The position numbers and the translations under genes are program-made. Shown piece after piece: positions 14,855 through 44,179 of a stretch of 44,271 nucleotides of DNA. Under the pieces are notes generated by a model. It was not told the origin of the DNA, ran no database searches, and saw only the letters and a program-made list of their open reading frames with translations. The stretch's first letter is position 1, and each line of letters begins with the position of its first letter. This DNA is from Dimargaris cristalligena (Eukaryota), in contig ML002310.1 of assembly GCA_003614675.1 (NCBI GenBank), forward strand, positions 1-44,271. Direction: 5' to 3'.

Positions 14855-17800
14855 GGTGGGAAAGTGAATGGGCAGCGGAGAGGGGGTGGGGAATGAGTGA
14901 TAAACCCGTGGGGAAGAGGGAGTGTAGCGCTGGGTTGGAAACTAAATGGGCGACACCGGGGCAATTGATATTAAAATAGCGGACTCGAGGGGACGGTTTG
15001 CGCCGGGCCAAATGCTCTGGCAATGAAACGGCTGGCTATAGTTTGGCGGCCGGGAGAACGAGGTAGTTGTTCCGGAGGGGGAATACGACGAGCTTGTGCG
15101 TATAAACTAGCGGGTGAAGCAGAAATAGAGAAAGAGGAGGCGACGGACAATGCCAACGAAGAGGTCTAAGTAACTTTGGCCCTGGGTGGGGTCAAGAACC
15201 AAGTAAATATTACAAAGGGAGTTTTAATAAGGGAAGAACAAGGCAACCTGACAGCTCCTCCGGTTTTGCAAGTGGTCTTAAGGGCTGGCGTTGGTCACTA
15301 TTATTAATCCAATAGAGTGCGCGGCCGAAAGGGGGTTAAGTGGGGGGAACAATCCCCCGGACTACCGCCGCTGTGCTTCCACGCCAAGCTGGCCTGATAA
15401 GGGGAAGGAGAGTCCTTCTCTACGCGTCGACGGTGGAAGATTCGACGAAAAATGGCCATGGCCAGTCAAATGTCCCCCTTCCTCACCCTTCACACACTCT
15501 TGCGGGGTTCTTGTGCAACATCGGCCAGCCTATACATTCCTTAGTGCAGAGTTAACTGTTCAAACCAGCCTCTTCAAGGTAGACTAATGCAAATAATTAT
15601 AACATCTCCCCGTCAACACTCCAACTGGCTTCGATACAATGGACGGCTGGGGTAGGCATTATTGAAGACAAAGGCAACCGCCCAAAGGGGTTAATCGAAG
15701 TACTGGGGCGCTTAGATCCCTCTAGAGCATACCTTGTCCCTATTATGGACCATTATAATCAATCATAAAATACGAACGGCGGTCAGCCCAACAGCGCACA
15801 AACAACAAATGGTCTATAGCCAGATCCTACCCGCTGGCGACTGTACTGTACAGTATAGTATAGTATAGTATAATATAATATGGCCTTTAGATGGTTTCCC
15901 AGTCAATTAGGACTGTTTTTAATGTCCATTATTTTTACACTCCCCTTCGCGCTCACAACAATACCAGCTGCATATCGAAACAGTGGGTCACCTACCCCCA
16001 TCTCTACCACATCGTCGCGTGAGATGACCAGATGCATCTCGCTGTCCACTTTGTGTTCGAAACCTACCCACCTTTCGCATGGATAACGCTGGGCTCGCCG
16101 CAAATTCCGATGTTTACTTGCCTGTATAAGTCTCATATTAGCCCCTGTTGTGCAGGTCGCCTGTCAAGTGCGTGAGAAAAGGCGTTCAAAGACTCGGAAT
16201 CGGACCTACACCGCAGTGAACCACCGGTCCCCCAAATAGTGGATACGCTGCCCCGAGTTCCACCAGCCAACCCCTCACGAGCCAACATCGGGTCGGTGTC
16301 GGCTATTTGGCTTAGGGCTGACATGTGTGGGGAACGCCATGGTCCGGTTGGGGTTTCGGGAAATATCATGGCCGATAAACCCCGCCTAAATACCGATTTT
16401 TTCGGCAACATAAACCCAATCTAGCCAACTCTATAGTGCACAAAAAAAGTGCGTGAAGATCCTCGTACGAATACGTGTCATCCACCCCCCTCTAATCTAT
16501 GCTGGCCTCAGAAATACCCCATTCCCTTGGGGGCAATCGGGCCAATCAATACCGGTGCGTTGAGGTAATACTAATTACACTCCATACACCCAGGGCACTG
16601 GGGTTATCTAGGGTAGAAAGGCGAAGATGATATCCCGTATGATTGTTAGGAAGGTGCCCAAGGATGCCGTAGTGAGAAGGATTAGATTAAACCCTGCTAC
16701 CTCTTCGCGCCGTCTCTATACTACCATAGCTAATGGGGACGGGACATTTGCGCCAATCATAGCAACCGCGCAGAAATTCTTCGACTCCTGCTATAGGGGG
16801 AAATCCCGGCGTAGCTGCAAAGGGGTTTGCGGGAAATGGGCGGGTTACTCGGTACATAGCCGAACCAACGTTTTGGTATATAAATTCGACATTGGTATTG
16901 GAGGGGGGGGTGTAGTGTTGGACAGCGATGAATCCTGCTGGCTGGAGCGAATGAGTGAGCGTAAATCCCCCCTAGTGTTGAAGGGATTGGCGACATTGGG
17001 CTTTTGGTTGAACCAGTCCCATTACACTATCCGTGGGATTGTGAGTCTATCATAATGGGTACAAAGTTGCTCGGCGATTGTGTGCCATTCTTGGAGGAGG
17101 GTTTCCGATACCCACTTATATAATGAACGAATAGAGAATCCTTTTTTGCATTGGAGGAGGAAGGATTAAGCGAGCCATAATTTAACGACACCATCGGATT
17201 TTCTCGCTTTTTGGCTGCGATGTGCCCTATTCAAGCTTCAGTGGATCATTTTTGTTCCTTTAGAGGGGGAAGGGGTCACTGCGTTTATTTGTACATTCGT
17301 AGACAGTGTTGCCAAAACAGCCCGCATTGATATTTCCGGGGATTCAACATAGTCCCCTTAGGGAGAGGGGGCTTGACCCGCCACTAATACAGGTAATAGG
17401 TGTGGCGGAGTTTGGATTGAATCTGTCGCTTGGGGCAATGCGACTATCGAAAAGGGGGGAGGGTGGGGAATTACTCGCGTTACACGAGTGTTAGATTTTG
17501 GCCTTGCGTATAGAGTATCGCTTTAGCCAGTCATTACCCCGCGTCTCTCCCCTCCATCTTGCTAATGTAACAATACCAGTCCTCCCTATTTTAAGCATAC
17601 CTAATATTAGCATTTTGGGCTGCGATGAGGAATATAGGATTGGGAAAGCTGATATGGAAAAGGGGAAGTGTTGTTGAATTCGGCAAGCATGACTCTGTCC
17701 GCATTGGGGGGCTAGCCCATCCACCTACATCTTAAATGGAGACATCGGGAAGTGGACGAAAAGAAGCAGAGGGTAGTGAGCCAAAGGACGTTCTAAAATA

Positions 17801-20859: not shown

Positions 20860-21739
20860 AACCTATGGCCTTTCCTCTCCTTTCATCCACACCCGTCTCT
20901 GTACATTATCCCGCGTCCACACTGGACTTTGAGCCCTTCACCTCTCCCTCTCTCCCCTCCTCGCCCTCCATCTCTTGTTGGTTTGCCAATATATATATAT
21001 ATGTATATATAGCCACACCAATTCCCTCCGATTTTAAATAGTTGACATATAGCCCCTTATGCATGCAATCGCTTAGGTCGGTTTAGCCTCTTTCGTTTTC
21101 CCCCTTGTACATTTACTTTACTCGTTCCCCTCCTTTTTTTAGTTTCTCTTCTTTTATCATTCCATTCAAGCCACTGTGACCTTCCCAGTTATCGAACCAT
21201 TAGGTTGCCCATTTCGTTGCTTTTTCCCTATTCTATTCCTTCATTTACCACCTCTTGTATATTTACCGTTCGTTCACTGTTTACTACTCTGTAGCATCCA
21301 TTGACTGAACCCCGAAAACCCGGTCTTTGGAAACATTCCCGATATACCTTTCTATAGGTATCCCTGTTATAATTCGACACATTTGGACCCCCCCTCACCC
21401 AATATTCTGTACATATACGACCCCATTACTTTGCTCCCTCTTGTAAATAATCGCCCACACTATATTGATTATAGGTGCCAGTAAATACATTGCTTGTAAA
21501 TATAAAACTACGTACGGTCCTTCCTCTTTCGGAGTACCCTTCTCCCCCATTTCGTTTCCTTCCTCTCTCTCTCTCTCTCTCTTTTACTCGAATATCGTCA
21601 ATTTCGCCACCCAGTTAGCTTACACCAGCGCGTTCATCAACGTTTAACTCCTCCTAAAATCCACCAACCAACTGTTCAATTGAGCGATCTTTCTCCTTGT
21701 TTCTCTCTATATACACACAAAAAAAAAGGGAAAATTACC
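20860..21739 (+). promoter_or_regulatory. Pyrimidine-rich leader or promoter of the AGC kinase
   Basis: C/T skew, (TA)n at about 20989-21011, (CT)n at about 21563-21582 and an A-rich context directly before ATG 21740. Confidence 0.45.
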
Positions 21740-24700
21740 ATGTTTACCGCCTACTCACCCGAGTCTGTCGCCATGGACCACCAGCACACGGCGGAGTCCG
21801 CTTTGAGCTCGCGCAAAATAATTACGCTTACATCGCCGTTCGTACTGTTGTCCTTCGAATGGGACTACGTGCAAATTGCCGTGACCGAATTCGCGACCCC
21901 TGGAAAAGTCGGCACCGAGAGTGTGGTAAGTGTGACTTTACTTGAGGGGCAGTGGCTCCTTCCCCCCCCTTTCCTTCCAAAAACCCCTTAAACTCCCACG
22001 CTCCCCATAGTAAATGTGGGAGCAGTAGCTGAATTCACCCAACCACTATCGCTCCTAACCCTCTCCCCCTTCTATTCTGTGACTGCTCTATTTTTTTGGT
22101 TATGCCCGAACCTTATAATCAATCCTAATGCATTCCGCAAATGGCCATTGTACGGGACTTTTACGCATTCTGCTCACTTCACGTTGTAACCCCAATAGTC
22201 CTTCCAAATCGATGTGTACGATACCACCCAAGGCTTCTCTTTCATTAGACCTTGGTCAGATTTCCATTGGCTTAACTACAAGGTACGCATGATTATCACC
22301 CTATCTTTGTCGAGCTCGCTCACCATTAAAAAAACGAGGATTGTCCAAGCTTATTTTCCACCGGCTTCCTCTCGGTAATGGGGCGCGAATGGCCTATAAT
22401 ATACCTTGCGCCCATTTCCCCTTCCCCTGCCTTGCTTTCACTCTATTCTAACCACCTACCTATACTATACCTCTGGTACGAATTTGTCATCTTGCACTGC
22501 ACCATGTCCGTTGACTTCTGTATCCTCCCACCACGATGTTATCACGAACCCCCTTTCCCGCTTGATTTTTAATATTTAGCTCCGCCAATACCAGTCCGTC
22601 AACAAATTGACGCTTCCCATTCTCTCCGAGAGCAGCCGTAACCAGCTTACCAAGAATCTCTTTTTCCTCAAGACCAACGCCGAAAAGGTTGAAAAGTATT
22701 TCCGTAAAATCCTGGCCGAACCTTTCCTCCGATGCACTCCCGAGCTGTTTGACTTCATGGCGGCCAAGGGCACTACGGCCGCGGCTAACGGGGGCGTCCA
22801 AGGCTCCACCAAGGCCAGTCGGGCAACGACTGCGATGGCGGACCACGGGTTGGTCGCCAAACCGAACCAGCAGCGGGTGGGCGCCTTGGGCCTGTCCCCC
22901 AAACCCACCACCATGGCCACCGGAGCGGCTCCCGCCCCCCGGGCTAAGAAGGATGTGTTGAAAATTAACACCCAGGACTTGGGTGCCCCTTTCAACGTCA
23001 ACTTCACGGCCCAGCCGCGAACCAAGAAAATGGACAAGGGCGCCATCGCTAATTTCACTGTGCTCGAAAACCAAACCGGTACCAACGACCAAGTGCCCCG
23101 CATTTCGTCAATGACCTCGTCGGCCCGCTTGGAAAACTTTGACCTCCTCAAGGTGGTGGGCCGCGGCTGTATGGGCAAGGTAAGCCCCCCGGTTTTCAAT
23201 TTCCCGGAATTTATTATATTATCATCGGCTTGGCCTTAGAGAGAGAGATGTGGGTATGATTGTGCCTGCGCCAATCAAGAACATTCCAACACTAAGGAAT
23301 ACGACACGTACTTTAATTAATGAAGAGGCCAACCGACTAATCCCATCATGTTTTCTACAACTCTTACATTTTTCACATCCGCCATATCTAGGTTTTCCTG
23401 GCCCGTGATAAGATGACCGACGAGCTGGTGGCTATCAAGTCCATTAGTAAAGAAAAGGTTCTCCGCCAAAACGAAGTGGAGCACATTCTGGGTGAACGCG
23501 ATATCCTGGCCAACATTGCCGATAACAACCACCCCTACCTCATGAAACTGCGCTATTCGTTCCAAACCGAGGGCCATCTTTTCCTGGTCCTCGACTATCT
23601 GCCGGGTGGTGATATTGCCACTCAGCTGGCCCGCTACTACCGCTTTTCCGAAGAACGTAGTCGGTTTTACGCCGCTGAAATCCTGCTGGGTCTGGAGGAA
23701 CTCCACCGTATGGGTATTGTGTATCGGTAAGTCCTAATTTTCTCACTCATTAAACCGTCCTCGACGGAGTGATATAGGGGATTCTCGCTAGGAGAATACT
23801 ACAATGGGAGGGAGTACAATCACGGACCCTTTGAACCCAGTGTGATTGTATACCGGCTGGAGCTGGGCCCCGAATCTCTAAGCCTTGCGATAAACTAGGC
23901 TTACGAGGTTCGGCTTCCCCCCTCCCTCTCTCTCTCGCCCTCTCTCAGCCAGTCTCCCTATCCCATTGCAACTCTTTCGCTCTGGGATTTTCCACACCCT
24001 ACTACATCCTTTCATTAGCACATATTCACTCACACTCCTTCCGCTGTTCACCATATCTGCCCTGCTTTGAATCTTACCAACCATACAGTGACTTGAAGCC
24101 CGAGAACATGCTCATTGACCGCCACGGCCATATTCTACTGACCGACTTTGGTCTGTCCAAGCAGCTGCCCACCGAGGGTTACGATAACCTGGGGTGCCCC
24201 AGATACCGTCGACGCACCAAGACCTTCTGCGGTACTGCCGAATACCTGGCCCCCGAAATGTTGCGTGGTGAAATTTACGACCAGGGCATCGACTTTTGGA
24301 GTCTGGGAACCTGTCTCTATGAAATGATGACCGGCATGGTAAGTGGTGAATATTTTTTTACAAAAATAGATATAATTCATCTGGCTTGTGGTGTAATTTA
24401 CACATACCCAGTTGGGCTGGGAAGCATATGCGAGTATGTTGTTAGGTGGGGGAAAAAGCAGACTCTAAATCCGGTAACATTGTTGCCAGTTCTTCTCGGA
24501 CAGCCACCTATTACCTGCAGTTTATTAATTATTATTATTGTATTTACCTAATGCATCTATATTTCGATAAACCCTCAACTGTCCAATCCCTCACTTTAGA
24601 CTCCTTTCTGGGCCGAGAACCACAGCAAGATGTACCAGCGGGTCCTCTTTGACCGCCTCCACTTCCCGGCCAACATGAGCTGGGAAGCGCGCAGTTTAAT

Positions 24701-25695
24701 TACCGGAGTAAGTCACCGCGATATCTACACATCATAATAATTACCTGTTTGAGCATCCCAAACAAAACTCCACTATATTTGGCCATGCATCGCTTTAGTA
24801 CACAACCATATTGACCCACCCCATTCATTTGCTTCGATGTTTCTAACCCCACCTTTGTGTTTTATACTTTTCCCTGAATCCTTCTCTTCTCCACCCCGCC
24901 GGATGGTGTATATTGACTATCTAATAGCTACTCGCCAAGGACCCCCAAAAGCGCCTTGGTGCTGGTGAATTCGGGGTTGAACAAGTCAAGTCCCACCCCT
25001 TCTTCGCTTCCGTCAACTGGTCCAGTTTCATGGAACGCCGCGTCACCGCCCCGGTGGTACCCCCCGTGGCCCACGCCGAGGACGTGTCCAACTTTGAAGA
25101 CGCCTTCATCAACCTACCCGTCGAACTGGCCGCCACCAACCGCGACTACCTCCAGGAATATTACGCCACCCACGGCTGTCTGGGTTCTAATGGCGTTCTA
25201 GCTACCAATCCCTTCGAGCGCTACGACTACGTCTCCCGGTTTGTGCTCCCTAAGAGCCAGAGCCAGCATATCCACCCCCAATCGCCGGCCCGGGCCATGG
25301 GTTTCGTCCGGGGTCTTTCCCCCCATGCCAACACCCATGCTAAGGCCACCGTTACCGCTACCATGGCTACGGCCCCGCAACAGCTGGTGGGCCAGGTATC
25401 TTTGGAAGGTACCTTTGGGCGGGCGAGCGCCAAGGCCGGTGGTCCCATGAAATCGGCGGCCGTCAGCGACCTGGATTTGGGCTCATTCTTACCCGCCACG
25501 GCCGTGAGCCCGGTCCGTTCGCAGCAACCTACTCCTACTTACCCCCAGTCGAACCTATTCCATAATGTCAATATGGGAACTCTGGAACAACTCCAGAAGC
25601 TCCAGCGGGCTGCCCCCATCGACCACCACAAGGTCTTCCGCCCCACTGACGGGCCGATCACGAAGAAACCGCCCATGATCGAACGCACGAACTAA
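21740..25695 (+). CDS. AGC-family Ser/Thr kinase (Akt/SGK/Ypk-like) with an N-terminal PX-like domain. Exons 21740-21925, 22199-22282, 22580-23179, 23392-23726, 24089-24338, 24600-24707, 24928-25695; 776 aa
   Basis: All six introns are GT..AG and keep the frame. Kinase motifs [67 protein letters not shown] and HPFF, plus AGC C-tail motifs PPV...SNFEDAF and FERYDY. Exons 1-3 give a PX-like pattern ([11 protein letters not shown]...LP...[24 protein letters not shown]). Confidence 0.92.
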
Positions 25696-27941: not shown

Positions 27942-28442
27942 CTATACCTCGAGTTCGAGGCAATGAAGGAGTAGGGCACTTATTTGGGGGGGACGACGAC
28001 CTGATCGAAGGGCTGGGCCATCAGAGTCAGAGTGGCGGTGCAGGCGGAGGACTGGGTGTTGAAAGTGGCCATTGCGAGTGAAGAGAGGGATGGGGGGAGA
28101 GAGAAGAACGAAGGAACGAACGGAAGGTCGTGAGGGAATGTCGGATGGGTGGAGGGAGTGCAGATGCGGATGCCGGGGCAGGAATGAGGAAGATGATTGA
28201 AATGCTTGTGGAGAATGAGATGCTGAGGAGTGCTGCTGAGGAGGATAATATATCAGAGGAGGCGACGGGGGGTCCCTTTTATATTCCCGGACCCGGTGTG
28301 GCTCAAGCGGTGGTAGTGGTGCCTTAGGCCCAGCTTCAGTGACTGGGAATAATAAGACGGTAAATAATCTTGACATAATTATAAAAAGCAATAAAAAAAA
28401 GAGAGGAAGTACTAGAGCCAACGGCATGGAAGCTCGCCGCAT
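27942..28442 (-). CDS. Candidate small secreted or membrane-anchored protein (166 aa ORF, possibly spliced)
   Basis: ATG start, hydrophobic N-terminus (LALVLPLFFLLLFIIM..LFTVLLFPV), a KR dibasic site, a TATA-like CTATATTATATAG about 150 nt upstream and minus-strand pyrimidine skew. No recognisable domain, and the L/F/P/S richness could come from base skew alone. Confidence 0.3.
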   Translation of the reverse strand: MRRASMPLALVLPLFFLLLFIIMSRLFTVLLFPVTEAGPKAPLPPLEPHRVREYKRDPPSPPLIYYPPQQHSSASHSPQAFQSSSSFLPRHPHLHSLHPSDIPSRPSVRSFVLLSPPIPLFTRNGHFQHPVLRLHRHSDSDGPALRSGRRPPQISALLLHCLELEV

Positions 28443-31400
28443 GGAAAGACGATGAAGGCGGGAAGGGCTAAACTGGTGTAGAGGGATTGACGCATAGCCC
28501 CGAGAGGAAAATAATACTACGTGGGCGAGTCTGGAAAAAGGGAATAGAGGAGGGTTATACTTGGAGTGTATAAGTGTGATGGGTGCTATATAATATAGAT
28601 GTCACCACTAACTATAGCCAATACTGTTTTATTCAATTATTTAGAAAAGCCAGCGCGGGAGAATGAACCAGGGGGTGGCAGCGAATAGAACGAAAGGAGA
28701 GGTGTGTACTGCCCCCTCCCTCTCATTCGGTCGCCTACTGTGTAGCTCATAAGCAACGGTGCTAACCATACACTACCCGCTGCTTACTAAAGTGCAGGGG
28801 AACGCACCAACGACGGTCTCGCAGATGACTAGGCGCTGCCCAGCCGTTGAGATGCACCGACTTCGCCTATCGTCACTTTTATCATCCGAGATACTGCTTG
28901 GTTTCGCGCCTTCACAGAAATAGATTTATATATGTATATCAATATATAATATACATCTCTATGGCCAATGCTCGAACACTCCGGACAATTGACCTCGGCT
29001 CCCATTAGGAACCCACCCAGTGTATGCTTGGAATGCTTCTTAGTCTCTGTTCGGCTGCTGGTTCGATTCCAGGTATTGGGGGGAAAGGAAATGGGATATT
29101 CCCAATCCTCCGCTTAGTCGTCGAACGAATGGGTCCATCGAGCTGCATGTCGCATCCCACCCCAACCGCATTAACTAGCTGGAATTTCTTATCATCCCAT
29201 AGCGTCCTATTCCTTCCTTCTCCGCATCCCTATTACTACCGCTATTGTAGTACATATTGTGAATGGGTGGTAGGCTGGGGGAGGGGTACAGTAACGTCAA
29301 TGTACCTAGGTTCGCATTATCGATGGTAGCTATTGATCTGATGGCCCAACCCTGTCCCCCTTTTCTGTGGTTACGGGCGGGCCGCGCATTTTTTTTTCAT
29401 TAACTGACCTACCCATGTGTGAGATCCATGACCTCGTTTTTTTATGTCAGCTAAGCCGGATTCAATTCGGTCTAGGCTAGCGGTGATTTAGACCCGCTCG
29501 GAGGTGTGGAAAAGGGGGAGACGAGGGCGGAAGGGATCGATCAAATTGCCGTACACCACCATTTTCCCATCCATCTCAGTTTGAGAATCCCTGGCTATGA
29601 TTGTCACTCTCCGATTACGCGCCAATCAATCTATTCGCTCATAGGGCCCTTAGTACAGGGGCCTCGGTTTGTCGTCCCCCCAAGATAATAATAATAATAA
29701 CAATACATTCATTGCCTGTGCTCATTTAATGACAATGGTAATATGAAAGAAGAGGAAAGACTCGCTAAGCTGAGGGTAATCGCTCGGCCGTATTAAAAAG
29801 ACATTCCTCCGACTAGCTATGAGTAATTACTGGCCCCTTCCCTTAAATGAACAATCCAGATTGAATCCAGGGAGTCCCCAACCGTATCGAAATATCCCTC
29901 CGAATAGCGGCCAGTTGCCTTTATTGGCCGGGATAACAATCACACACATGTATATATACACACACGCGCAACACTGTATACAGCATGGCTTTTATTTTAG
30001 ACTGTCCAGCTAGCCATGGGGAATAAAAAAATACAATAGCTAAACATTTCACATTCCTAGGGAGTCTGGCACCATGAAAAGACTTACATATTATTATTTT
30101 TTGCGACTACTGTGATACATTGGTAAATCCTTAGCGTTACGTGAGTTTACTAAGTGCTAGGGTGGGGAGGGGAGGGAGGCGACGCCATGGTGTGCACGGT
30201 TAAACCTGGCCACGACTGCCATTAGTAAACGGTCCTTTGGAAAATACCATCAGTATACCGCCAGGTCGGAGGCGGGTTCATTGTACTCCATTGTTCTCAC
30301 CCATCGGTTGGTGGCATACGTACTATTTCATCGAGCATGCAAACATTACTATACGCTCATGCACTACTAGGAAAATGAATACATAGGGTTGGGCTGGACC
30401 ATCCCCGACCACTGCACCTATGGTTGCAATGAATAGTGATTCTTCATCCTTGTTACGTATGGTGAATGTGCGTAGTAGAGTGAGCGATACTGTCAGTACG
30501 GTTGTAGACTAGTTCTTATCAGTGTCGACGGAAAGCAGAAGAAGAAGAAGAAAATAATAATAACAGGAGGGGTTGCGGTCGGAATAGTTGAGCCGATTCT
30601 ACTAGCCCCATATTACACCCGGCCCAATTAGTGCACCCTCTCGTCAGGCAGGTTCAAGAACCAGGGGGAAGGGAATTCGACCTGCTGTGGCTAGTGAGGG
30701 GGGCATTGACCATTCATTTTCCAGTGGTATAGGCCTTTAATAATACATTTCCAGGTGTAATCCCGGCCGGACCGAACTGGGCCGTAGTAGCCATTGCCCG
30801 AAGCTAAAGCCCCGCCAAACGTAAATAATAAGTGTGGTGTTTTCAGATTGGCAATTCTTATGTATCAGTTGGTGGCCATTGTGCTCATTGAGGGTAGGTA
30901 AGCTACAATGATATCAATAATCCATACCTCTCCACTATTACTTGTCCCATCTTGCGCGATGCTCTTCTTTTTTTCAGCGACAAACGTAGAGCAACTAGCA
31001 ACAGAAGCGTTTCCAGTCTGGCCTAAATTAAAAAGCGGGTCCGTAAATATAGACTAATACTAAACTGCACCAGCTTGGGCGATATTACTCTACCCGTAGA
31101 CTGCGCCATGGGAGGTGGGAACTGCTGCTATCGAGTAGCATACCGGTTTCCTCCAGTCAAGGTAATACATCAGACTGCATGCTACAAGTACAGTGCTAGC
31201 CTTTCCATATTTCCAAAAATAGCGATAGGGAAAAGGGAGGCGACGTAAAATGCGGGTAAAGACGAGTGGAACGGGAGAATCCCCCAGACAAGAAAGAAAG
31301 GGTAGCAGTAGGCGTGCCCGCCCGGCTTCATGGCCCCCCGTCCATGGAATGTACCCTCACCCCGCCCCCTCACTTTCCGCAATAGAAACGTACCACCACG

Positions 31401-34400
31401 GCCTTTTCGTTTAACTCTGCTTTATCGGCCGGAGATGCCCAAAGGTGCAGGAGGCGGCCAGCATCATCCGGATCCGACGTCTTTCGAACCCACTTCCATT
31501 CTCCCTATAATTTATCAGCCATGAAGTGGCAGGCATTGAGTCCCCCCGGTGATGATAATTGAGGCAAGTATAGCCACGATTGGATGGAGGAAGGGGGGAG
31601 GTTTCAGAGGTACCCGGAAATAATAATGTACGCTGTTTACGGGGATTAGTTTTGTACCTAAATATTATCAAACGGGTTGTAGTGAAATCCACTCCAGTGG
31701 GATCTTTGTTGTTTGGCCGATGCTATTTTATACATCCCTATAGATCCCGGACAATGGGCGAAGGCGTTGGTTGTGTTGGTATGCTTGCATGGAGATGGTC
31801 TCATCAATCTGTAAATACTCAGCGCAAATAGATTCCATGGCGACTACTTCTTACCTTCTCTGTCACAACATCAGCATCCACTTGCCGTTAGAGTGTCATC
31901 GTGAGGGTAGTGGTAGTCGGGGCTTTCACCATAGTGGGACTTGGCTTACGTGTCCCCCCCTCTCCCTCCATTCCTCTCTCTCCACCCTGTCAAAATTTTT
32001 AAATTTGGATTCCGGGAAGGGTCAGACTCGTGGGCCAAGCGTTGGCATAGCCTTCCAATTCGTAACCCAGGTCAAAGTCAGTCGATCTTGGGATCTACCA
32101 CCCGTCCCACCTATTATAGAATAATCAGTTGGCGACTTCGACCTAAACGAATATTAAATGACCGGGATTCATAATACATTTCTACCATCGTCAAATATAC
32201 CTTATTCGCTAAGATTTTGAAGGTAGGGCGCGAAGGCGAAGGGCAGTCGACTGTTACGTGGTAATGGTGGTCGGGCGGCTGGTGTTGGTACCTGTGTAGT
32301 TATCAGCCACCATCCGTCCATACTCCAACCCTCACGGAAACTTAATGCCAATCTATTGACAGTCCTTCAGGATTGCCATTTCTTCGCAGCCAGTCTGGTC
32401 CACGTTGATGTTAGTGTGCCTGGGTAGATTAGACACGCGAAATTGAGTGTGGAGGTAGTCAAGAGTAAACAACGCTAGATATTTGAAGGATTAACCTTGC
32501 CAATGAACATAAACGCTTCGCTGACAATGTAGAAGGGCCATATAGCCTAGCCAAGGTCTGGGCGGAGAACAAATCGGGGATGGAAGTTACGTCGCTAGAC
32601 TATACTGGCAGCCATATCCCCCTCCCCACAATGCACCCATATCACAATGGTCCCGATTTCGGTGAGCCCTGAGGTAAAAATAAAAACATACCGACAACTG
32701 CTACTCATTGTTGCTGTGGATAGCTTATCGGGTATCACCCTGGTTCATCATTTCCCTTCATTCATCACCGCAGTAGGATACCAGTCCAATCTCGACGTAA
32801 TAGTGCTATCATATTTGAAATCGGATATCCAAGAACACTCGACTATATTCAGGTTAATCTCGTATGCCAGTGTCTGTAGAATGTGCATTGAGTGCTGCGC
32901 GACGGGAGAATAGTAGATGTAATTAATGAGTCGTAGAGGTAGTATACACCCGGATTCCTTTTCCAATGTATAGTACTGATTCGACATTCGTGGGTTATAT
33001 TGTTTTTTATAAACCAGGTCGGTTCCGGCTCTTGGTATAGTATGTGGGAGTCTAGTCGGATATTAAGGCCCCCCAGCCACTTCGCCAAAGTGCCCCGGCT
33101 CCAAGTGTCTTGGATTAGTATACTTAGGTTGGGGATTGGTAATGACTATTCCAATGAAATTCCGGCAGCGCGGAGTGTGTGCGTGTTTTCTTTTTATAAA
33201 AAGGATTGTTGTTTCGGAAGAATAGGTCTCGAACTAGGATCCGTATTTGCATACAATTACCCATGAGTCGGCCACGCTGCATAGATGTACGCCATCACCG
33301 ATAAACTCCCATCTATCGACCTACCCTGAGCCTGGCTCCTTGTGTACAGCCAACTATTGCTGCAATCCCGAACCTTCCCAAAAAAAATTTAATTACAATA
33401 GGGTACCCGTATGGCGTGTATTTCCCTGCCCCAGCTATGCACCGACATTACCGCCACTGGGATTTTTTTACCGAAGGTCGATACAATGAAGCGGCTATAG
33501 AGAAGGCCGGCGGGTAGGCATGGAGCGAAGAAAGGCTGGGGGTGGGGGCTTACAGCGATTTTTTTTTTAAATATCTATTGTTTTTATTTTTAGTCATCAA
33601 TTGGCCAAGGTAGCTCGGCATCCCTTGATAAATGGTGCAAATCACGCTCTATCTGACCAGTAATATTCTACTGAGATTTAGCATTGCCTATCCGTCACAC
33701 CACATGGCTGGGAAAAATCATCGGAGGAGGACCTTCCCCAACGTGCCACCGCATTTGGTAGTTTAGGGTGATTATTCACCAAACACTGGTGATTCAAGAT
33801 TGCCCTAAATCCAGTAAACGGGGGTAGGCCAACGGAAGAATGAAGGTGCAAGGATGGCCAAAAAAGGCAAACATCTTTACGCTTCTCCTTTACCCACTAT
33901 AAAAAGACATTCAAAGATGGCCATGTTTTCTAGCATCGAAGTTTGAAAGCGCAATCAAGCCGCTAAATTGGGCACAGGCGCCATTTTGAATATTGTGATT
34001 CGTGAAGGCTGAGTATTATTTACCCTTGAAGCACTTTTGAGGAGCCGCCGGTTGCTTCTAAGCCACTAAAATTGGCGTATTCTTCCTTGGGCTACTCACC
34101 AATAGGCTGGCCATTGTGTATACTGGGAAACCAACTTTGTTCTTGCTCCCAGTATATTCAAAAAAGACCCATTTGAAGAGAAATGGCAAGTTGAAGCCCG
34201 CCATAGCGATACAGTCGCTATTTGGAAAAGTGATTTGGCCACTCAAATCCTTTCTCGACCCATGCCCGTTTTACACACCAGCAAGCTATATCTGCAGATC
34301 CAAAGTAGCGTATGGCGCACGACTAACCACATGCAGAATACAGATGGTTAGTAATTTAGCACTGCGGAGGCCTCGGTCCGATTCTTCCACACTCCATGTC

Positions 34401-37400
34401 GGGCGTTGACACGTCAGCTAAAAAACGCTTTGAATCAGTACCAGACTAACATTCTAAGTATTCGGTTTGCACCACTTCAGCCAACCACCTAGTACATCTG
34501 GTATTATTATTTTTAAGTTCCATCTCCTGAATGCCCGCTACAGTAGTGACTAACTAGTTATTATACGCCATTGTTTGTGCTCCACTATACACATTCGCAT
34601 TTGATGATGAATGCCTAATAATAGAATGTGCTTAAGTCGGAAGTGCCCAGTTAGTTCAGAATTGCCCATCTTCGCTATACTATACTTGGGGCAGTTGCTA
34701 TGTTTTTGGATTGGAATGTTGCTACTATCTTCCATACACGGCTACTTCACCATGGCAAAACAACCAAAAGTGCCCGCAGCTAACCGGTTTTGTTAGTCCA
34801 GGGGGGAATAGGAGGAGGAGGGGAGGTTCCCCTAAACAGACCGCATCACCTGTGTTTAGTGATTCGACTGCGAATACAGGCCAGTCGGTGTCTTATCCCG
34901 CGCATCGAGTGGAAAAATGGGCGAATAAAAGGTTCCCACGTCTGTCCCCCCTCCCCTTCCCCCGACGACCACTATGACTATGCACTTTCATTTTGTAAAA
35001 TAACAATAATAAAATATACATGAATGGCTGGTAAAACCCACTTCTGTGGCGCATTAGGATGTGATGCACCAATGTATTAATATGTATTAATATGTATGAC
35101 TTTACTTACTCCATGAATAGCCGCTAGGCATGACTAGCTGCTGGACAGTCAGGCGGTGGCCTTTACCAGCAGTGAATATTATCCATCCAAGCGATTCGAG
35201 TCGATAGAAGGTAGTGATGGAGGTGGGTTAAAGTAAATCCACATGGACCCACAGGAAACTATATCCTCCGGCCACTGGAGGCTGGCTAATTCCCGGCATG
35301 GATGTCTTTGCGATACGGATGGGTGCTCGGCAAAAGTACGATGGCAATCGGGCAATGAATGGCGGAAAGGAAAAAAGAAAGGGGGTTGAGTTTGAAGGGA
35401 ATCGAGGGGTGGGAGAAGTTCGTGGTTATCAAGGTATCCCATTGAATCAATTGGAAGGCTAAGAAATGTTCGACATACCGTCGTAACCAGCGTTAAAGGT
35501 CTTTGGGATTACTACCAGTAGCCACCTCGGTATAGTGTCACCGGGGTGGGGGCGACTATGGCCCCAGTCCTGACATCAATTATTTTCTTTCATGACATTT
35601 ACTATCGCAAGAGCCCCTAGCAAATTACGCTCGAATGATTCACCACTTACCGAGGAACCGAAGATGGCGTGTCTAACGAAAGCCCCCGGGGCCATACGAA
35701 TCGATCGAATGAATCAGCCCACCGCCCCCAAATGCCTGGTCAAGGTTAAATGACATGGCGGCAATTACTGGAATAACAATGAAGCCTGGCGGACTAATAG
35801 GCCCAGCACAATAATTTGGTGCCACACTCGTATTTTGACGACCCCTGAAGTTAGCCTCCCTTTTCCAAGGTTGGTATGATATGGGAGAAGTTCATTCAGG
35901 CTGTATAGTGAAAAATCCGTTGGATGAGGCCAATATTACTGGCTGAAAATGAACCACCCACTCATTGTCTCGTACACTTGTCATTTAAATCCCTATACAG
36001 CTGAGTCGAATATCACCCATATGCACCCACCCAAATACCGATGCGAGTGGGATGACTAGCTTGACCACCACCCATTCGCCTCGTTATTTCTATACCCATG
36101 TCTTCTCATCACTTTGATACCATTTTTCTTCCCTAATACATTGATTGCATATGATAAGAACGCCGGGGCGTACATACTATCCCAACAATATACCCACTAG
36201 CCGCCACCTACTGTGGTAGACAGCCATTGACGTACAGTCAGCAAGGTATAGCCAAATATGGATGGGATATACAGTAACCGAGCAGCGCCTTGTTCCATTG
36301 ACGAGTGTATAATTTGATGTGGTGGCTGGACTCAGTGATGGTGAATACAGATGTGGCCAATACCAAGATAATAATAGTCGATACACTTCCGCACATGGAT
36401 TAAAGATAAGCCAGCGCGGATACGTCAATTGCAACCCCCGAAGGATGGGTCTCAGGGGTATTCTTAGGCAGTGCATGTCTGCGAAGCTCGGCTACGCTTC
36501 GCCTGGGTGGCCGTCGAACCGGGCCTCCACCCAATGGAACTAAACTTGAGTCAGGATGCACAGAAGCATACATTTTTTTTACCAAAAAAAAACACCAACA
36601 AAAAGCGCCTTCTCTTTTACACGCATCTGGCTGCCGCTCGTTGCAGCAATCGTGCAGAAGCCATGAGCACAGAAGCTGTTTTTTTCGCTCAGTAAATTAG
36701 AATATTTTCTCGATTCTTTGGGTGATTATTTTTCCTCTGAGGAATTCCGGATAATTGGGGCCTATAGTCCGAGACTATCATTGATTTTTAGGGTGATACG
36801 TGGCGGCGAAATAGCCATCCGTGGAGCGTCGTGTCCGTACGTGTGGAATGAATCTCACGTAGGTTCGATACATCCCACGGAGTGCTTTGACTGAGAAGAA
36901 GAAAAAACGATTCGATGGAATGATAATGGCCCCGAGTGTGGAGCGATACGACAAATCACAAATAATATCACAAAGTATATTATGCCATCTCGAGGCCTAC
37001 ATGCAACCATTGGGTATTCAAGCCATTTTAATACCAACGCGCGCCTTTTTAGGTCGTACATTCTATACCCCTCACGCCAGCCCCACCCAAATGATATTGC
37101 AACCGCCTGGAGGGGAGCACCGCTCCGACAATATAGAGGCCAGCTGACCCCTCTGCCGAAATGCACCGCCCGAAGGACATTGGCCAGCTTCTGACCCCAA
37201 CGGCTATACTAAAACAACCGAGGTTTAAATAGAGAATCGACACATCATTAAGGTCAAATTATATCTTAATAAAATTACACATTTACATGTACTATTTTGT
37301 TCTTCAAGAAAGCCAGCAAGCCCCGCTCGGCAAACATTGTAATTCCCGGACCAATTCGGCCTGAGCGCAACACTACGAGTAGCCTTGAGCGGTGGCCACC

Positions 37401-38554
37401 TTCGGATTTATCTGGGTGAATACCCCGTAGTGAAGTCAGCCCCCACCTCAAAAGTATCGATAAAGTCGTTAACTGTGGCGGAGTGACCAACAATAGACAT
37501 CTCAAATTCCTCATACTAGGACTATTTTTAGCTTACTCCACTAGTTCTATTAATATACGTAGTTCGTAAAGGTTAGACTGGGTGGAGCCAGGTCGATCCG
37601 AAAAGCACCACTCGATTGCGTTGGCCCATCTCCATAAGTGAATGTCCCGAAATGACCGCGCTCCTGTCCCTTTGCCTTAAATACAAGGTTCATTTTTACT
37701 GATTGCCCTTTGAAGAGCCCACAAATACATCCATTAACCATACTCGGTCACCTAAACATGCCCCAGCATCAATGGCCCTGGTCGAATTAGTCGACTGGGT
37801 TGGAAACCCCGTTGCCGTTTCATATCGCTAACTAGAGAGGCGGTAGTGCACCCTAAAAGCGGTGATTATAAACGGCCAAAGCGAATACCATTACTAATCG
37901 CTGCGGGTTGTTTGAGGTATTCTAGGATAGCGATCCCTGTGGCAGGAGTGATACCCAGCGGTTGTTGTAGCCTGCACAAGTCTACGGTCTCTTTCATCAG
38001 CCACGATATGGCTACCCCCTTTGAATGTTTCCATTGGCAAATCCAGCAAGTAAATATAGGCATACCTTCCCTGATCTGCTAAATATAGATCCCAGAGTCT
38101 GTCTCGACTGTGGATTTATTTTGTCCGCAATATATACCATCCGAAAGTGGTCGTGGCTATGGGTTTGGATATAGATATGGTGGGGTGGGGCGGTTGAGTG
38201 TAATCTCTGTGGGTTTTCGCATTCCGAAAGGGTCTCCCCTCATTGGCCCTTTGCGGCCGAGGGACAAGGCGCCATGAAATCCAGAAAGTCGTATGGGATC
38301 GTCCCGCACTCGCTCTGTTTCGCAGTGCCCGACGATCGGCTACTCTAGGGTGGCTCATTGGCACTGGTGCTATTTTTTTTCCACAGTCCTGAACGGTTCC
38401 TGGGGGAGGTTATATAGAAGGAGAGATGGTAAGTCCCTTAGAAGGCCTCCTCCATCGATTCGCCCCTTTTCCTTAATTTATCTGTTAGTTGAGTGGCTCT
38501 CTATGGAGCAGGGTGGTAATGCCCCCCGGGGATTGCCCTAACGCGAGGAAATGG

Positions 38555-38573
38555 GAGAGAGAGAGAGAGAGAA
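38555..38573. repeat. (GA)n microsatellite
   Basis: gagagagagagagagagaa. Confidence 0.85.
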
Positions 38574-39786
38574 GGGACAAGCGGGATAAATGTGTGCTTT
38601 TGGCAATGGGGGACGCAGCGTAACCAGGCTCGCGCCTGTTTCCCCCTGCATACTGATGTCAATAAGACCCTATTCTAACCCTTCAGGTCTGGCGTATTTA
38701 CTGGCCCAATTATGCCTAGAGGGGGTCTTCTCGTACCATTGCTGAGCTTCGCCGAGGACCTTTTTATTCAGAGTACACACTCGAAACTCGACAAGAGGAT
38801 CGCCGTTGTCGAAGTGGGGATGGTCTTGTACCCAGCCCACAGTCGTGCTTTACTCGACGTTGCCAAAAGAACACTGAATCCTCGCACATCCCAATTATGG
38901 AGCAGCATCCACCCCGCTTGATCTCCTGCTGCTGGGCTTCCGCGCTTAGCCGGCACTCAAAGGCTCAGGCGAGTACGCTTAATATATTCCTTCCCCTTCT
39001 GTTCCGTTCCTTTACACATTCTGGTTATAATTTAGTTGTCTTGTTCTGGTCTTATGAGCTGTATAAACTAGTGATTTTTCTACTCCCAAGTTCGCCTGCT
39101 TTATCGTCGTATATCGATTTCTTATTAGTTTAGTTTAGTTCTGCATCTCATTCCCTTTGGCTCGCTGGCTCGAGTCGCTCCCCGCAATGCTATTTTAAGC
39201 CTCACGCACCATAGCGCACCGGTGACTGGTATATTTTTATATTGCATTTTCCGACCATTAATTGTTCGTTGAGGCTCGGTGCCCGACACTCTCCTCCACT
39301 GACGTCTCGTCTTGAGCTTATTTCTAAGCGGAAGTATACCCACTCTCTCCTTCAGCGCCCGGCTGGTTCTGGGCAACTCCCATCCTTCCTCTCCCCATCC
39401 ACTCGCTTCGAACATTTAAGAATTGCAACCCATTGGTACTATTTTTGCATGCCGCCCAGCGCGTCGAGTAGTACATACCGACTGTTTATCAACACTTTTA
39501 CTTGTGCTACCAGCCGGCCGTTTACCCCACATTTTTTTCGAGCGGCTCTGTTTATATTTGCTTCCAAGCCACACGCCGCCAGTCTATTCCTCCTCCGGGT
39601 CACGAAGGTACAATTATCCTTTTCGCTGTTCCCCACCGCCTCGCCCCCTGAATTTTCACTTCTATTCAACCCCTTACATACCCCGACCGCGCCTGCCCTT
39701 TTTTTTGACAAGTATTCTTCACGCCCACAGACACACTCTCACTCTCGCTGGGTATTTCGTATATACCACTTTAGACCCTTTCGGTT

Positions 39787-42700
39787 ATGTCGCGTTTGTC
39801 GATACTATATAATAGGCCCAGGGGTCGTCGGCCACTCCCTGGGCTGCTAGCCTACCTTGGTGTCTTACTAGCCTGCCTCCTCGGAGTTTGGCCAGCTGTC
39901 GTCGAGTCGAGCCCCCAGAGTGGTGGGCTCCCCACCCCACCCCTCCTTCCCTCTAGCCCACTCTGCCAAGTGGAGTACCTTCTTTTACTTATTTCCCAAA
40001 GGTCCTGGTTCGACGGGGGCCTCCTTTCCCCCATCGGGTCAATAGTTTATCCGACCAGTGACCGGTCCGGTAGTTTGATTGACCTATGGGGGTCGTCGAC
40101 GAGTGCGCATCGTTCCCCTTCGACTGGAGGATGCTATACCGCTGCCGAGGTAAGAATTTCGGCCGATTGCGCCTGACTACCGGGGACAGCTCCGTGCAGT
40201 CCAAACCGGATAGTTACTATCAAAATAGTGGTATTCATTGGGAGCAAGGGGGGTTGCATCCACTTGTCTTCATCTCCTGCAAGGAGTCTGCACTATCGTG
40301 ATATTCTCCACCATTCCTTACCCCCCCCCCTTCGTGTCTGCCTGCTGGAAATGAGACATGGCTAGCTGCTCATCTGGGGGTCGTTTACATATCCGTCTAC
40401 CTACCAATTGCCTTATTAATTTTCCCCTCCGTCCAATACAACCATATACGATCATCCTAATTTAACCGGTATCCCTTACCGGCTCCCTCGATTGACCATC
40501 CCTAGATTCTAGCCAAACGGCGGGATTTGTACCTAAGCCAGCCCGGCATCCTTCTCGTTGTACGGAAGAAATCAGAATATGCCAACGAGGCCACTCCCTT
40601 TGCCGGTCCCATCGAGATCCACGGCGTGTCCATGTCATACCAAGCCTATACTTTGGCACAGCTCTCAGCTGAACCCCAAATTCTCCGTCGCCGGGAAGCC
40701 CGCGAGGAGCCGGAGCCACCACGGCGCCTACAATCGCTACGTCCCAGCGAATTAGCCCTAGTGAACACCGCTGCATATACTATTCAGCGGTGGTTCTTTT
40801 TTGCCCTAGTAAGTGGCCTGTTATCCCCGCCTTGAACAATCGTGCGCCTCTTTCCGGTCACACCGGGCTCGATAGCATAGATGTCGCCTTATCTTGCATT
40901 GTTCGTGGCTCTATTCTGTGTATAGACAATAGGCCTTCCCCCAGCAATACGCCACTCAGATTTGGGCGATCCTAACCCTATTGATTTACCTCCTATTTAC
41001 CTATGTTTGATAGTTTGCCCTGAGTAGCGCCTACGCCGTATACCAACTGGGCTTTATGGTATGGAGGTTTGGATTACAGGTCAACTTGCGGGCCTTCGTT
41101 TACTTGAGCACCCTGTCCTTCGTCATCACCACCATGGTGAAGCCCATCGGCTCCTCCCTGTCGCCTGTCGCATCGTTCTTTACGTACCTTACACTATGGC
41201 TGGCATTTGCTACCTATTTGGCCCTACTGGGTACTTGGTAGGTAGACTCCCCTATTACAGCTGATTGTTGCTATATTCAACAGCTTGTCCATTAACCCCG
41301 AATACCTCAGGGAATACACCTCATGGAGCACCAGTTAAATTATCACTATTTTCCAGTATACTCCATTGTCCAGCTTTACTTGGTATATTTGGGAATCTAC
41401 TACGAAACTAACCACCAATAGCGGACATTTGTCTTCTAAATCCATCGATTCATTAGGAACCAATTTGTTCGGTCGTTCTACCGGTCCCCGTTTGGTGATA
41501 TCTTTACCGGCATCTGCTACGCATTAGGGTTCTACACATTTGCCCTCTGTCTATTGGGAATGGTCGGCTCCTTCCAATTCGATGGATCGGATGCGCTCAA
41601 CGAATTCACCGCCATGGCCTGCTCGTGTTCGTTGCCGGTGGTATTTTTGATCAAGTCAACGACTATGTTTATTTATGGTATGTTTTATTGAGTATCCATG
41701 CCTAGCCTCGAGCTACCCCAACCATCTCGCTATATCTTGTCGGTGATAAGAATCTAATACCCCTGCTGAACCTGTTGTCTTTCTCTATTGGTATTACTTT
41801 GCCAACCCCGGTCCATCCTACCTATAGCCAAGCGGTGTTTCCAGTGTATCCCGCGGGACATCAAGCCCCATAGTCTCTTCCAGGCTATCATCAAACTAAC
41901 CGCCGTTATTATCGTGGTCCAAGTGGGCTGGTGCTTCCTTCCGGTGGCTGCTGCCCTGTTCATCGTGCGTATGTTCGTGGATAACGCATCCCTTTACTTG
42001 GCGTTTCTTATCATGTACAACCTGACGATCGTGTTGACGTTTTCGGTCATCTTCTGGTTCCTCACGGTTCATGATAGTATTCCCTCCCTCCTGGCCTTCC
42101 TCACCGAGGGGGCCGCCCAACGCAATTCCAGCATCTACCTCTACAGTGACCAAAATACGGTCGTTAGTCCGCATTTCAAAAATTCGCCCCTCCTCTCGGC
42201 GCTACCCGTCCGATTCAGCCAATTAATCACCCTGGGTAAAACCACCACCCCGGCCCCCGGTACGGCCCTAGGGGATACCGCCAAGCTGCCGGTTGATTCC
42301 GAGGCCGCTAAACGGCGCACCGTCGAGCTCCAGAAACTAATCCGTAAGATGTCCAAACACTCCCTCTTCCGTCCCGCCGACCTCAGGGACGCGGATGTTT
42401 CGATGGTGCGTAGTCCCTCGCTTAAAGACGGGGATGAACGCCCGTACCGAATCGGCCGGTTCCAATGGGAGCGGGAGTCGGGTCGGTTTCAGCAACTGTA
42501 TCAGTATTTTACTAGCTGGGGTGGATACAGCGGTGGTGGAGGTAATGGAGGGAAGCATAATGGCCGGTCGGATCGACCCGGGTCTCGAGGATCCTCCTTG
42601 GCCGCTGCCGGAGCCCCCGCCAGCCGTCGCTCACGTAGTCAAAACCGCCGGCAGAAGTCATTGCTTCAAATGCGACCGCAGCCACCCGTCCCAGCCCCAG

Positions 42701-43047
42701 CCCCAGCCCCGGCTCCGATTCCAGTTCTAGCTCTAGCTTCAGCTCCGACCCGGGGTCCGTCTACTTCATCTCGGGCAAGCACCCAGTCAGCGGCAGTGAC
42801 GACTTCCCTTCCCCCGTCTAGACACAGTTCCCAAGTATCACTCAACCCCCTCCTGAATTCAGGAACCCCTTATTCGTTGGCCGCCAATGATAGTGTTCAC
42901 TATTTTCCGGTGACTTTGACCATCACACCGTCCAATGCGTCATCTTCCTCCGGTTCCGTTGTGCGGAATATTCATAACCTCACCATTGAAGTTCCACCCA
43001 TCCCGTACATTCCTGGCCTTGAACCTCGCAAACCCGGCCCCCGCTAG
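39787..43047 (+). CDS. Orphan 7TM receptor-like (GPCR-like) protein with signal peptide, extracellular N-domain and long cytosolic tail. Exons 39787-40149, 40506-40808, 41014-41237, 41457-41677, 41828-43047; 776 aa
   Basis: Four GT..AG introns (donors GTAAGA, GTAAGT, GTAGGT, GTATGT) join four ORF-track fragments plus one unlisted exon into one open frame. N-terminal hydrophobic stretch LLAYLGVLLACLLGVWPAVVES, seven later hydrophobic segments, then a basic S/P-rich tail. Confidence 0.82.
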
Positions 43048-44179
43048 AACCTTTATTTCAGAGGGGGCTTCCTTTTTTTCTTTTTCTAAAAACAGAAATA
43101 TAATTCATCAACAACCCTTACAGTATTTTGTTATTTATTTAAAAGCAATTCACTGTGAGGGGACCCACGAAGAATTAAGATTATGTAAATTTATGAATAA
43201 CTTAGGTATCGCCCCCCCCCCCTCATACATATGTCCATGGCTGGCCGAATGAATCCAACTGTCGCATAGCTTTGTCCTACTTTAATTTCGAACATTCGGC
43301 CGAACCTCATTCATCTCCTTTATCCAGACTCATGGTGTCAGCCATTTATTACTCTATGACTGGCCCCATTCTATCCATCAACTGCACTGTTTTTGTCCAA
43401 CTCTATCCACCCATTGCTCTACTGTGAATAAACCGCCTGCCTTGATTTTACGCCTCTCTACCACCTAATCTTGGATTATATAAATGGTTAGGCCTAGAGT
43501 GACATTGCTGTTGTGCTAGTTATAAAGAAACAAGACTTTCAATTGAAATTTGCTGGCCCGCATCAGCCAACTATCACAGTCTGACCGTAATAGGGGCCGT
43601 GATCCTTATTTAGATTCAATTTCGTAGGACCTTGTGTTGAGTCTGGCAGGTCTTATTTTATGGATTTCTAGAACACCATTTGGTGTAGCCGTCATATAAA
43701 TGTATGTAACCGGTCCTGGGATATCATATTAAAGCCGACTTTAGGGTGATAGAATTCAAAGTAGGACGGTTGGGGTTAGCAGAGAGTCCCTCCACCTCTT
43801 TCAATAGGGGGTGAGAAAAACTAAACAACATGTCAGACATTATTTTGCTCTGCTAGATATCCCGTGCATTGGTATTGCATAGTCCTCGAACCATTTTGAA
43901 AATTATATCGTTACATGGGAATACAAACCAGCGAAAATGCAATAATAACGACTCCCCTCGCCCATCCCAGTGTTTTGGTATCTAGCTTCTTTATAACATA
44001 TTTCGGGTTGAGGAGTTGAGTGGGTATGCAGTTGCCGCTGACCTTTCGAACCAATAGGGTTGGTAATAGAGCTCCCAGTCAGTTGGGTTAGGGATGGCTT
44101 GTTAAATGGATATACAGTGACAGTCTCCCTCCAAATAATTAAATTCGTTTATACAAACTCATTATGTTAATAGAGGGGA

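Follow-up and report, generated by a model that had tools for sequence, protein, structure and literature searches.

Dimargaritales are obligate haustorial parasites of other moulds, and to our knowledge little is known of how they sense their hosts. The described systems closest to the protein considered here include several kinds of membrane protein. Class A G protein-coupled receptors (GPCRs) have the marker motifs D/ERY in transmembrane segment 3 (TM3) and NPxxY in TM7, and microbial rhodopsins carry a retinal-binding lysine in TM7. Protease-associated (PA) domains are found in plant vacuolar sorting receptors, PA-TM-RING ligases, and SPPL2 proteases, where the partner is a single TM helix or a nine-TM protease rather than a GPCR-like seven-transmembrane (7TM) bundle. 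A 2025 survey defines GOST proteins by a GOLD beta-sandwich at the N-terminus, immediately ahead of the 7TM part (PMC12716839; further GOST papers are PMC9711517 and PMC11605061). In this study, we analyzed a 44,271-nt stretch of DNA (hereafter the window) from the mould-parasitic fungus Dimargaris cristalligena and focused on one gene at 39787-43050 of its plus strand. An earlier note, made from the sequence letters, had taken this locus for an undescribed-looking 7TM receptor with a signal peptide and a possibly PA-like ectodomain. We read the product as a 776-amino acid (aa) 7TM protein of GPCR/rhodopsin-like fold, a member of group A of an unnamed Dimargaritales family and a sensor or receptor, with a probability of about 0.6. 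The family would be a lineage-restricted orphan 7TM receptor-like family; the receptor role is what we infer, and G-protein coupling is not claimed.

Five open stretches between 39787 and 43050 fit together in frame across four GT..AG introns. The predicted spliced product has 776 codons, followed by a stop at 43048-43050. The intron donors are gtaaga, gtaagt, gtaggt, and gtatgt, all four acceptors end in tag, and the four introns contain 1-6 stops in each frame. The parts of the gene are as follows.

39787-40149 (+): exon 1, 121 codons, with the sole in-frame ATG, the signal peptide (aa 1-42; hydrophobic core aa 19-39, at 39841-39903), and the opening portion of the ectodomain with Cys60 and Cys116 (GGCYTAAE); donor gtaaga
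40150-40505 (+): intron 1, 356 nt, GT..AG, with 3-6 stops in every frame
40506-40808 (+): exon 2, 101 codons, with the remaining ectodomain, ILRRRE (40680-40697), the juxtamembrane motif QRWFFF, and the start of TM1
40809-41013 (+): intron 2, 205 nt, GT..AG, interrupting TM1
41014-41237 (+): exon 3, with the remainder of TM1, TM2 (41086-41148), and TM3; a family-invariant Trp is split across intron 3
41238-41456 (+): intron 3, 219 nt, GT..AG
41457-41677 (+): exon 4, with intracellular loop 2, TM4 (41497-41577), extracellular loop 2, and TM5 (41608-41676)
41678-41827 (+): intron 4, 150 nt, GT..AG
41828-43050 (+): exon 5, with intracellular loop 3, TM6 (41875-41973), TM7 (41995-42069, FWFLTVHD), a putative helix 8 SIPSLLAFL (42076-42102), and a 321-aa Ser/Pro-rich cytoplasmic tail

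Exon 5 lies within one open frame (41770-43047). The earlier note had closed the gene at 42080; it continues about 970 bases further, to 43050, because the 321-aa tail follows TM7. Exon 4, which that note had proposed outside its list of open reading frames (ORFs), is real, being included in a deposited protein (P0001) and aligned to all orthologues.

Two deposited models of the gene were compared with this splicing. Over TM6-7 the translation matches BJ085DRAFT_28297 of D. cristalligena (P0001; RKP38985.1; 552 aa; 'hypothetical/transmembrane protein') at 100% identity, and the second model comes from another assembly (P0018; H4R33_000782; KAJ1993070.1; 675 aa). In P0001 the start is an ATG near 40086, read in another frame, and the intron 1 acceptor is placed 7 nt downstream, so the signal peptide is missing. 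It also takes an extra intron out of the tail, by which the match to the C-termini of the orthologues is lost. P0018 has the same ATG as the model given above, the same exon 1 3' junction (GGCYTAAE joined to ILAKRR), and an unspliced tail; its first exon appears to be 7 nt long, followed by an intron to 40046. Part of TM5 is omitted in P0018, and no orthologue omits it. The unspliced C-terminus (…SSQVSLNPLL…NIHNLTIEVPP…) aligns with the C-termini of Dimargaris verticillata and Dimargaris xerosporica. The splicing of the earlier note combined with an unspliced last exon is favored because all the orthologue features are kept; both deposited models look partly wrong, and the 776-aa splicing would improve on both. 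The gene model is supported by in-frame GT..AG splicing, a 100% match to deposited proteins, and colinearity with the orthologues, including the C-terminus. On sequence grounds, the gene with its five exons is genuine.

Within the model, certainty is lowest for exon 1. Its frame stays open for 121 codons from the sole ATG, against 4 and 6 stops in the two alternative frames. The orthologue P0009 of D. verticillata is full-length and has a classical signal peptide. Exon 2 matched P0009 at E 6e-8 (BLASTP) and exon 3 showed 56% identity to it (tblastn); the match of exon 1 was not significant (BLASTP, E 0.84), and the alignment held a colinear pattern of Cys…Tyr, Leu-Trp/Val-Trp, and Cys-Tyr. The N-termini of P0009 and of the paralogues P0006, P0014, and P0007 are hydrophobic and signal-like. 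In a codon-usage score trained on exons 2-5, the frame chosen for exon 1 in the earlier note obtained -0.12 per codon versus -0.21 and -0.39 for the other two frames; the test is of little power because one intron frame scored higher still (-0.02). We consider exon 1, as drawn in the earlier note, quite probably correct.

Hydropathy averaged over the family gave one N-terminal hydrophobic stretch and exactly seven TM cores. The signal-type core (aa 19-39) is preceded by five K/R. The TM segments were mapped to aa 217-240, 247-267, 275-297, 311-337, 348-370, 387-419, and 427-451; the family-hydropathy cores of TM1 and TM3 are slightly narrower. K/R residues occur on the TM1-2, TM3-4, and TM5-6 loops and on the tail, with none on the other three loops; the N-terminus is therefore placed outside. 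Seven TM helices with N out and C inside, as expected of the GPCR fold, were found by hydropathy and charge and in AlphaFold2 models of P0009 and P0006. Much of what the earlier note had described was thus recovered: the seven hydrophobic stretches and the motif GGCYTAAE joined to ILAKRRDLYLSQPGILLVV are all present in the spliced translation, the signal peptide precedes an ectodomain close to the proposed 170 aa, and the N-out, GPCR-like topology agrees with the loop charges and with a bundle that matches GPCRs and rhodopsins.

The ectodomain has 173 aa, two cysteines (60 and 116), three dibasic sites, and zero N-x-S/T sites. Identity to P0009 is 55% in the 7TM core, 45% in the tail, and 26% in the ectodomain. 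One dibasic site, of the form L-x-R-R, lies at aa 182 (ILRRRE), about 35 residues ahead of TM1. The corresponding alignment columns read RLQRR, TLYRR, and TLRRR, and L.RR is present in 4/4 orthologues having the region; it could be a Kex2-type processing site. In the bundle the family has motifs of its own: TM1 carries YA-YQ-G, TM3 has an invariant Trp at its end, and TM7 carries FW-L-VH. Four conserved islands were found in the tail.

42184-42207 (+): SPLLSALP; group A orthologues have SPLL--LP
42343-42369 (+): RKMSKHSLF; group A orthologues have R-[KQ]-x-S-K-H-S-[LM]-F
42448-42501 (+): RIGRFQWERESGRFQQLY; group A orthologues have RIGRF-WERES-RFQQLY
42967-42999 (+): NIHNLTIEVPP; three Dimargaris species have N-[IV]-HNL-I--PP

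The RKMSKHSLF island resembles what we take to be a basophilic-kinase site, and the RIGRF-WERES-RFQQLY island is helical, at low confidence, in the P0009 model.

A phmmer search with P0001 against 1.84 billion representatives returned eight proteins at E <= 0.001, the query included, all from Dimargaritales. The orthologues, from Dispira parvispora, Dimargaris xerosporica, Dimargaris verticillata, and Tieghemiomyces parasiticus, share 46-53% identity (E 1e-79 to 1e-113), and distant paralogues share 22-26%. Searching from the paralogue P0006 added the D. cristalligena paralogue P0014 and proteins of Dispira simplex. In word-index searches, residues 28-470 of P0006 recovered only P0014 and P0015 besides the query, exon 5 (TM6-7) recovered the gene's own record only, and the 12-sequence profile A1 recovered 2 known members among 8000 scored candidates. 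The profile search was evidently swamped, perhaps by low-complexity tails. The protein is a member of a small unnamed family that sequence searches find only in the mycoparasitic order Dimargaritales. The earlier note had supposed an orphan class of early-diverging fungi; the orphan status holds, and the range has to be narrowed, all detectable relatives being from one order.

A maximum-likelihood tree was built from 14 rows. P0001 and P0018 (the same gene as the window row), the partial sequences P0008 and P0017, and the 53-aa P0012 were left out. Four paralogue groups were obtained, each with 100/100 support.

Group A: the window's gene and four orthologues, from at least two genera
Group B: Tieghemiomyces only
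Group C: three genera; includes P0014
Group D: two genera

Group A aligned with groups B-D at a probability of 99.6% (hhalign, E 4.8e-24), and the 253 aligned columns are confined to the 7TM part. Groups B-D have in common G-C-x-x-[YF] with a helix and next a strand after it, as well as G-P-W-N ahead of TM1. The window encodes no second family member. In the second assembly, P0014 (H4R33_000785) probably lies about three genes from H4R33_000782, as judged from the locus tags and the same recorded 105,352-base contig, which suggests a loose paralogue cluster.

Known families were searched for by hmmscan against Pfam, at E up to 1-10, with translations of the five exons and with 15 family proteins (P0001 and 14 others, listed as P0001-P0011 and P0013-P0015); the speed filters of hmmscan may hide matches above about E 0.1. 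No Pfam family came near its cut-off in any scanned family protein or exon translation. Among these sequences there was no match to the Ste2, Ste3, Git3/Gpr1, cAMP-receptor, class A/B/C, or Lung_7TM profiles, in line with the earlier note, in which no Ste2, Ste3, Gpr1, or class C motif had been recognized. PDB sequence profile searches with profiles A1 and A3 gave chance rows only (E 1.6-5.1). The weak Pfam rows for YbgT, TspO, CbiQ, Pgp3_N, Filament_head, and KRTAP7 were judged to be chance, as were DUF1218 (2/12 members, best E 0.033) and DUF5090 (2/12 members, best E 0.015; also P0014, E 0.69). In the ESM Atlas, the clusters nearest P0001 (0.90-0.91) were eukaryotic and unnamed, and Endomyxa or Zoopagomycota were their most frequent taxa. 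Clusters of THH1/TOM1-3, GPR137_N, and PRRT3 were leads at 0.80-0.82, and none of those Pfam profiles matched.

AlphaFold2 was run on two stand-ins, the orthologue P0009 and the paralogue P0006, not on the window's own protein. The P0009 model has seven long helices and short helices after TM7, and its 7TM part reaches a predicted local distance difference test score (pLDDT) of 57-83 in 10-residue blocks. The P0006 model has seven helices and one more. Its ectodomain (residues 38-205) is mixed alpha/beta, with pLDDT mostly 63-85, three long helices, and the order strand, G-C, helix, strand … strand, helix, strand. In Foldseek searches against the PDB, the 50 matches listed for P0009 were all GPCRs (E 0.014-0.084), and those listed for P0006 included GPCRs, several microbial rhodopsins, and one adiponectin receptor (E 0.003-0.03). 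The lists for P0006 were filled by the 7TM part, so these matches speak for the bundle and not for the ectodomain. The two modelled bundles can be superposed on solved GPCRs from several classes (class A MRGPRD, 9dqj; class C GABA-B, 7c7s; class D Ste2, 7ad3; class F Smoothened, 4o9r). No GPCR Pfam family showed sequence similarity to the proteins scanned. Microbial rhodopsin membership found no support in sequence, as TM7 (YLAFLIMYNLTIVLTFSVIFWFLTV) has no lysine and there was no Bac_rhodopsin match.

The common seven-helix arrangement might also belong to a protein that is not a receptor, such as a lineage-specific 7TM channel or a transporter-like or structural membrane protein. No transporter or enzyme was among the best matches listed for the P0009 and P0006 bundles, and the retinal lysine is missing from TM7. 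A long tail with conserved short motifs and a fast-evolving ectodomain would, moreover, be more typical of receptors, and we regard a non-receptor as very doubtful. A TM count other than seven, a transporter or enzyme fold, and a match to a characterized family, which the earlier note had named as outcomes that would speak against its proposal, were not observed.

Several points weigh against the reading as a GPCR-like sensor or receptor. Both structure models were built on only 12 aligned sequences, with mean pLDDT of 46.8 (P0009) and 61.7 (P0006), and the ectodomain of P0009 (residues 22-184) has a pLDDT of about 25 and no confident fold. The hallmarks of class A are absent: there was no 7tm_1 match, DRY is not seen at the end of TM3 (…LLGTWNQF…), and NPxxY is not seen in TM7 (…FWFLTVHD). 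In UniRef, P0014 of group C is called 'Intimal thickness related receptor IRP domain-containing protein', the domain name of the GPR180 type, an indication that a match was obtained with some other release or method. GOST is a trafficking family, and according to the 2025 survey G-protein signalling by its members has no reported molecular evidence (PMC12716839).

The last two points lead to the main rival, a highly divergent relative of the GOST proteins (GPR180/TMEM145, GPR107/108, TMEM87, and Wntless), which are located in the Golgi and endosomes and traffic membrane-associated cargo instead of signalling through G proteins. The layout is the same, with a signal peptide, a luminal or extracellular domain of 150-200 aa, and the 7TM part directly after it. 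Besides the name given to P0014, a weak Wntless-like match was found for P0015 (PF06664, WLS-like_TM, E 0.03, 14.1 bits versus a cut-off of 28.3), and this was the sole GOST-type Pfam match. However, PF10192, PF06814, and PF06664 all failed to match the exons of the window's gene, P0001, and the orthologues in group A, and P0014 itself did not match PF10192 at E up to 10 in the current Pfam copy. Nor was the defining GOLD beta-sandwich evident in the models: the predicted ectodomain of P0006 is alpha/beta, and that of group A has no confident fold. No GOST structure was among the 50 matches listed in each VIA-align search (P0009 and P0006), where unlisted families may remain. We hold a GOST relative to be unlikely.

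The PA-like ectodomain of the earlier note found no support in the window's gene. No match to PF02225 (PA) at E up to 1-10 was obtained with the exons, with P0001, or with the orthologues and paralogues, and the PDB profile searches contained no PA chain. The alignment of group A with the paralogues stops short of the ectodomain, and the ectodomain modelled for the orthologue P0009 is that of pLDDT about 25. A profile of the paralogue (B-D) ectodomains scored -1.9 bits on the ectodomain of the window's gene, and 86/500 shuffles did as well; the corresponding counts were 94/500 for P0009, 226/500 for P0003, and 147/500 for P0002. The paralogues are the source of the points in favor of a PA-domain receptor, in which a protease-associated ectodomain binding a peptide or glycan ligand would be joined to a 7TM transducer. 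The three language-model clusters nearest residues 28-215 of P0006 are all PA (PF02225 in 94-100% of members), at scores of 0.76-0.77, but the calibration of the tool itself treats anything below 0.9 as no more than a lead. Of the clusters near P0001, one contains PA in 10% of its members. The order of elements in the modelled P0006 ectodomain presumably resembles the PA pattern, and MAFFT placed the window's GGCY…PGILLVV under the G-C-x-x-[YF]…strand of the paralogues. PA-domain membrane proteins are thus like groups B-D in the alpha/beta ectodomain, the G-C…helix…strand order, and the nearest clusters, and unlike the window's protein, in which PA is not detectable. For the paralogues PA remains a lead; as an account of the window's gene, a PA-domain receptor seems very improbable.

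The best structural match of P0006 in any library came from the viral one. It was an unnamed membrane protein of Orpheovirus (A0A2I2L497, E 1.2e-7), with a TM-score of 0.56 by target and 12% identity; a Pithovirus protein (A0A481Z571, E 3.5e-4) was next. The alignment to A0A2I2L497 covers 467 columns against a 437-aa target, which suggests that both the ectodomain and the 7TM part are shared. These giant-virus proteins are compared through predicted models on both sides, and with P0006 instead of the window's protein. Giant viruses may carry the same ectodomain-plus-7TM architecture, and the viral matches and the Endomyxa and Zoopagomycota clusters are leads that such a class might extend beyond Dimargaritales.

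Under the preferred reading of the gene as a 7TM sensor or receptor, the cleavable signal peptide would put the fast-evolving ectodomain at the cell exterior or within a lumen. The dibasic L-x-R-R site about 35 residues before TM1 may be cut in a Kex2-type manner. The helix bundle would relay a cue from outside to the cytosol, where the islands of the tail (R-K-x-S-K-H-S-L-F, the predicted amphipathic helix RIGRFQWERES-RFQQLY, and the C-terminal HNL-I--PP) may recruit partners. Those partners could be G proteins or something else.

A much bolder proposal may be set beside this reading, and we think it has only a slim chance of being right. The Dimargaritales family would be the fungal branch of an unrecognized, patchily distributed eukaryotic class of receptors with an alpha/beta (PA-like) ectodomain and a 7TM part, captured also by giant viruses of amoebae. 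It would have expanded to at least four groups in the haustorial mycoparasites for host sensing. Group A would have swapped the folded ectodomain for a fast-evolving two-cysteine region with a dibasic site, and proteolysis would expose or release a tethered segment, as in protease-activated or adhesion GPCRs.

Searches of the literature library used found no work on the protein or its family: nothing that pairs Dimargaris cristalligena with GPCRs, nothing relevant on a PA domain with seven transmembrane segments in fungi, and nothing that cites the protein accessions. The words receptor, transmembrane, and GPCR are absent from the main text of the main comparative-genomics paper on Kickxellomycotina (PMC9866270).

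Upstream of the gene, about 5.7 kb (34000-39700) contains no stop-to-stop ORF of more than 137 aa lying wholly inside on either strand. This region may be intergenic, repeat-rich, or an intron-rich gene. Other ORFs of more than 160 aa in the window lie at 8914-10797, 770-1318, 13299-14941, 21506-25695, and 27942-28601 and presumably belong to other genes. No RNA family of Rfam matched anywhere in the window.

Orphan, lineage-restricted 7TM families are common in fungi, which tempers the interest of one more. The splicing proposed here would correct two deposited gene models. A 7TM family that is specific to one order, with duplications older than the genera, makes a reasonable candidate for sensing specific to this lineage of mould parasites.

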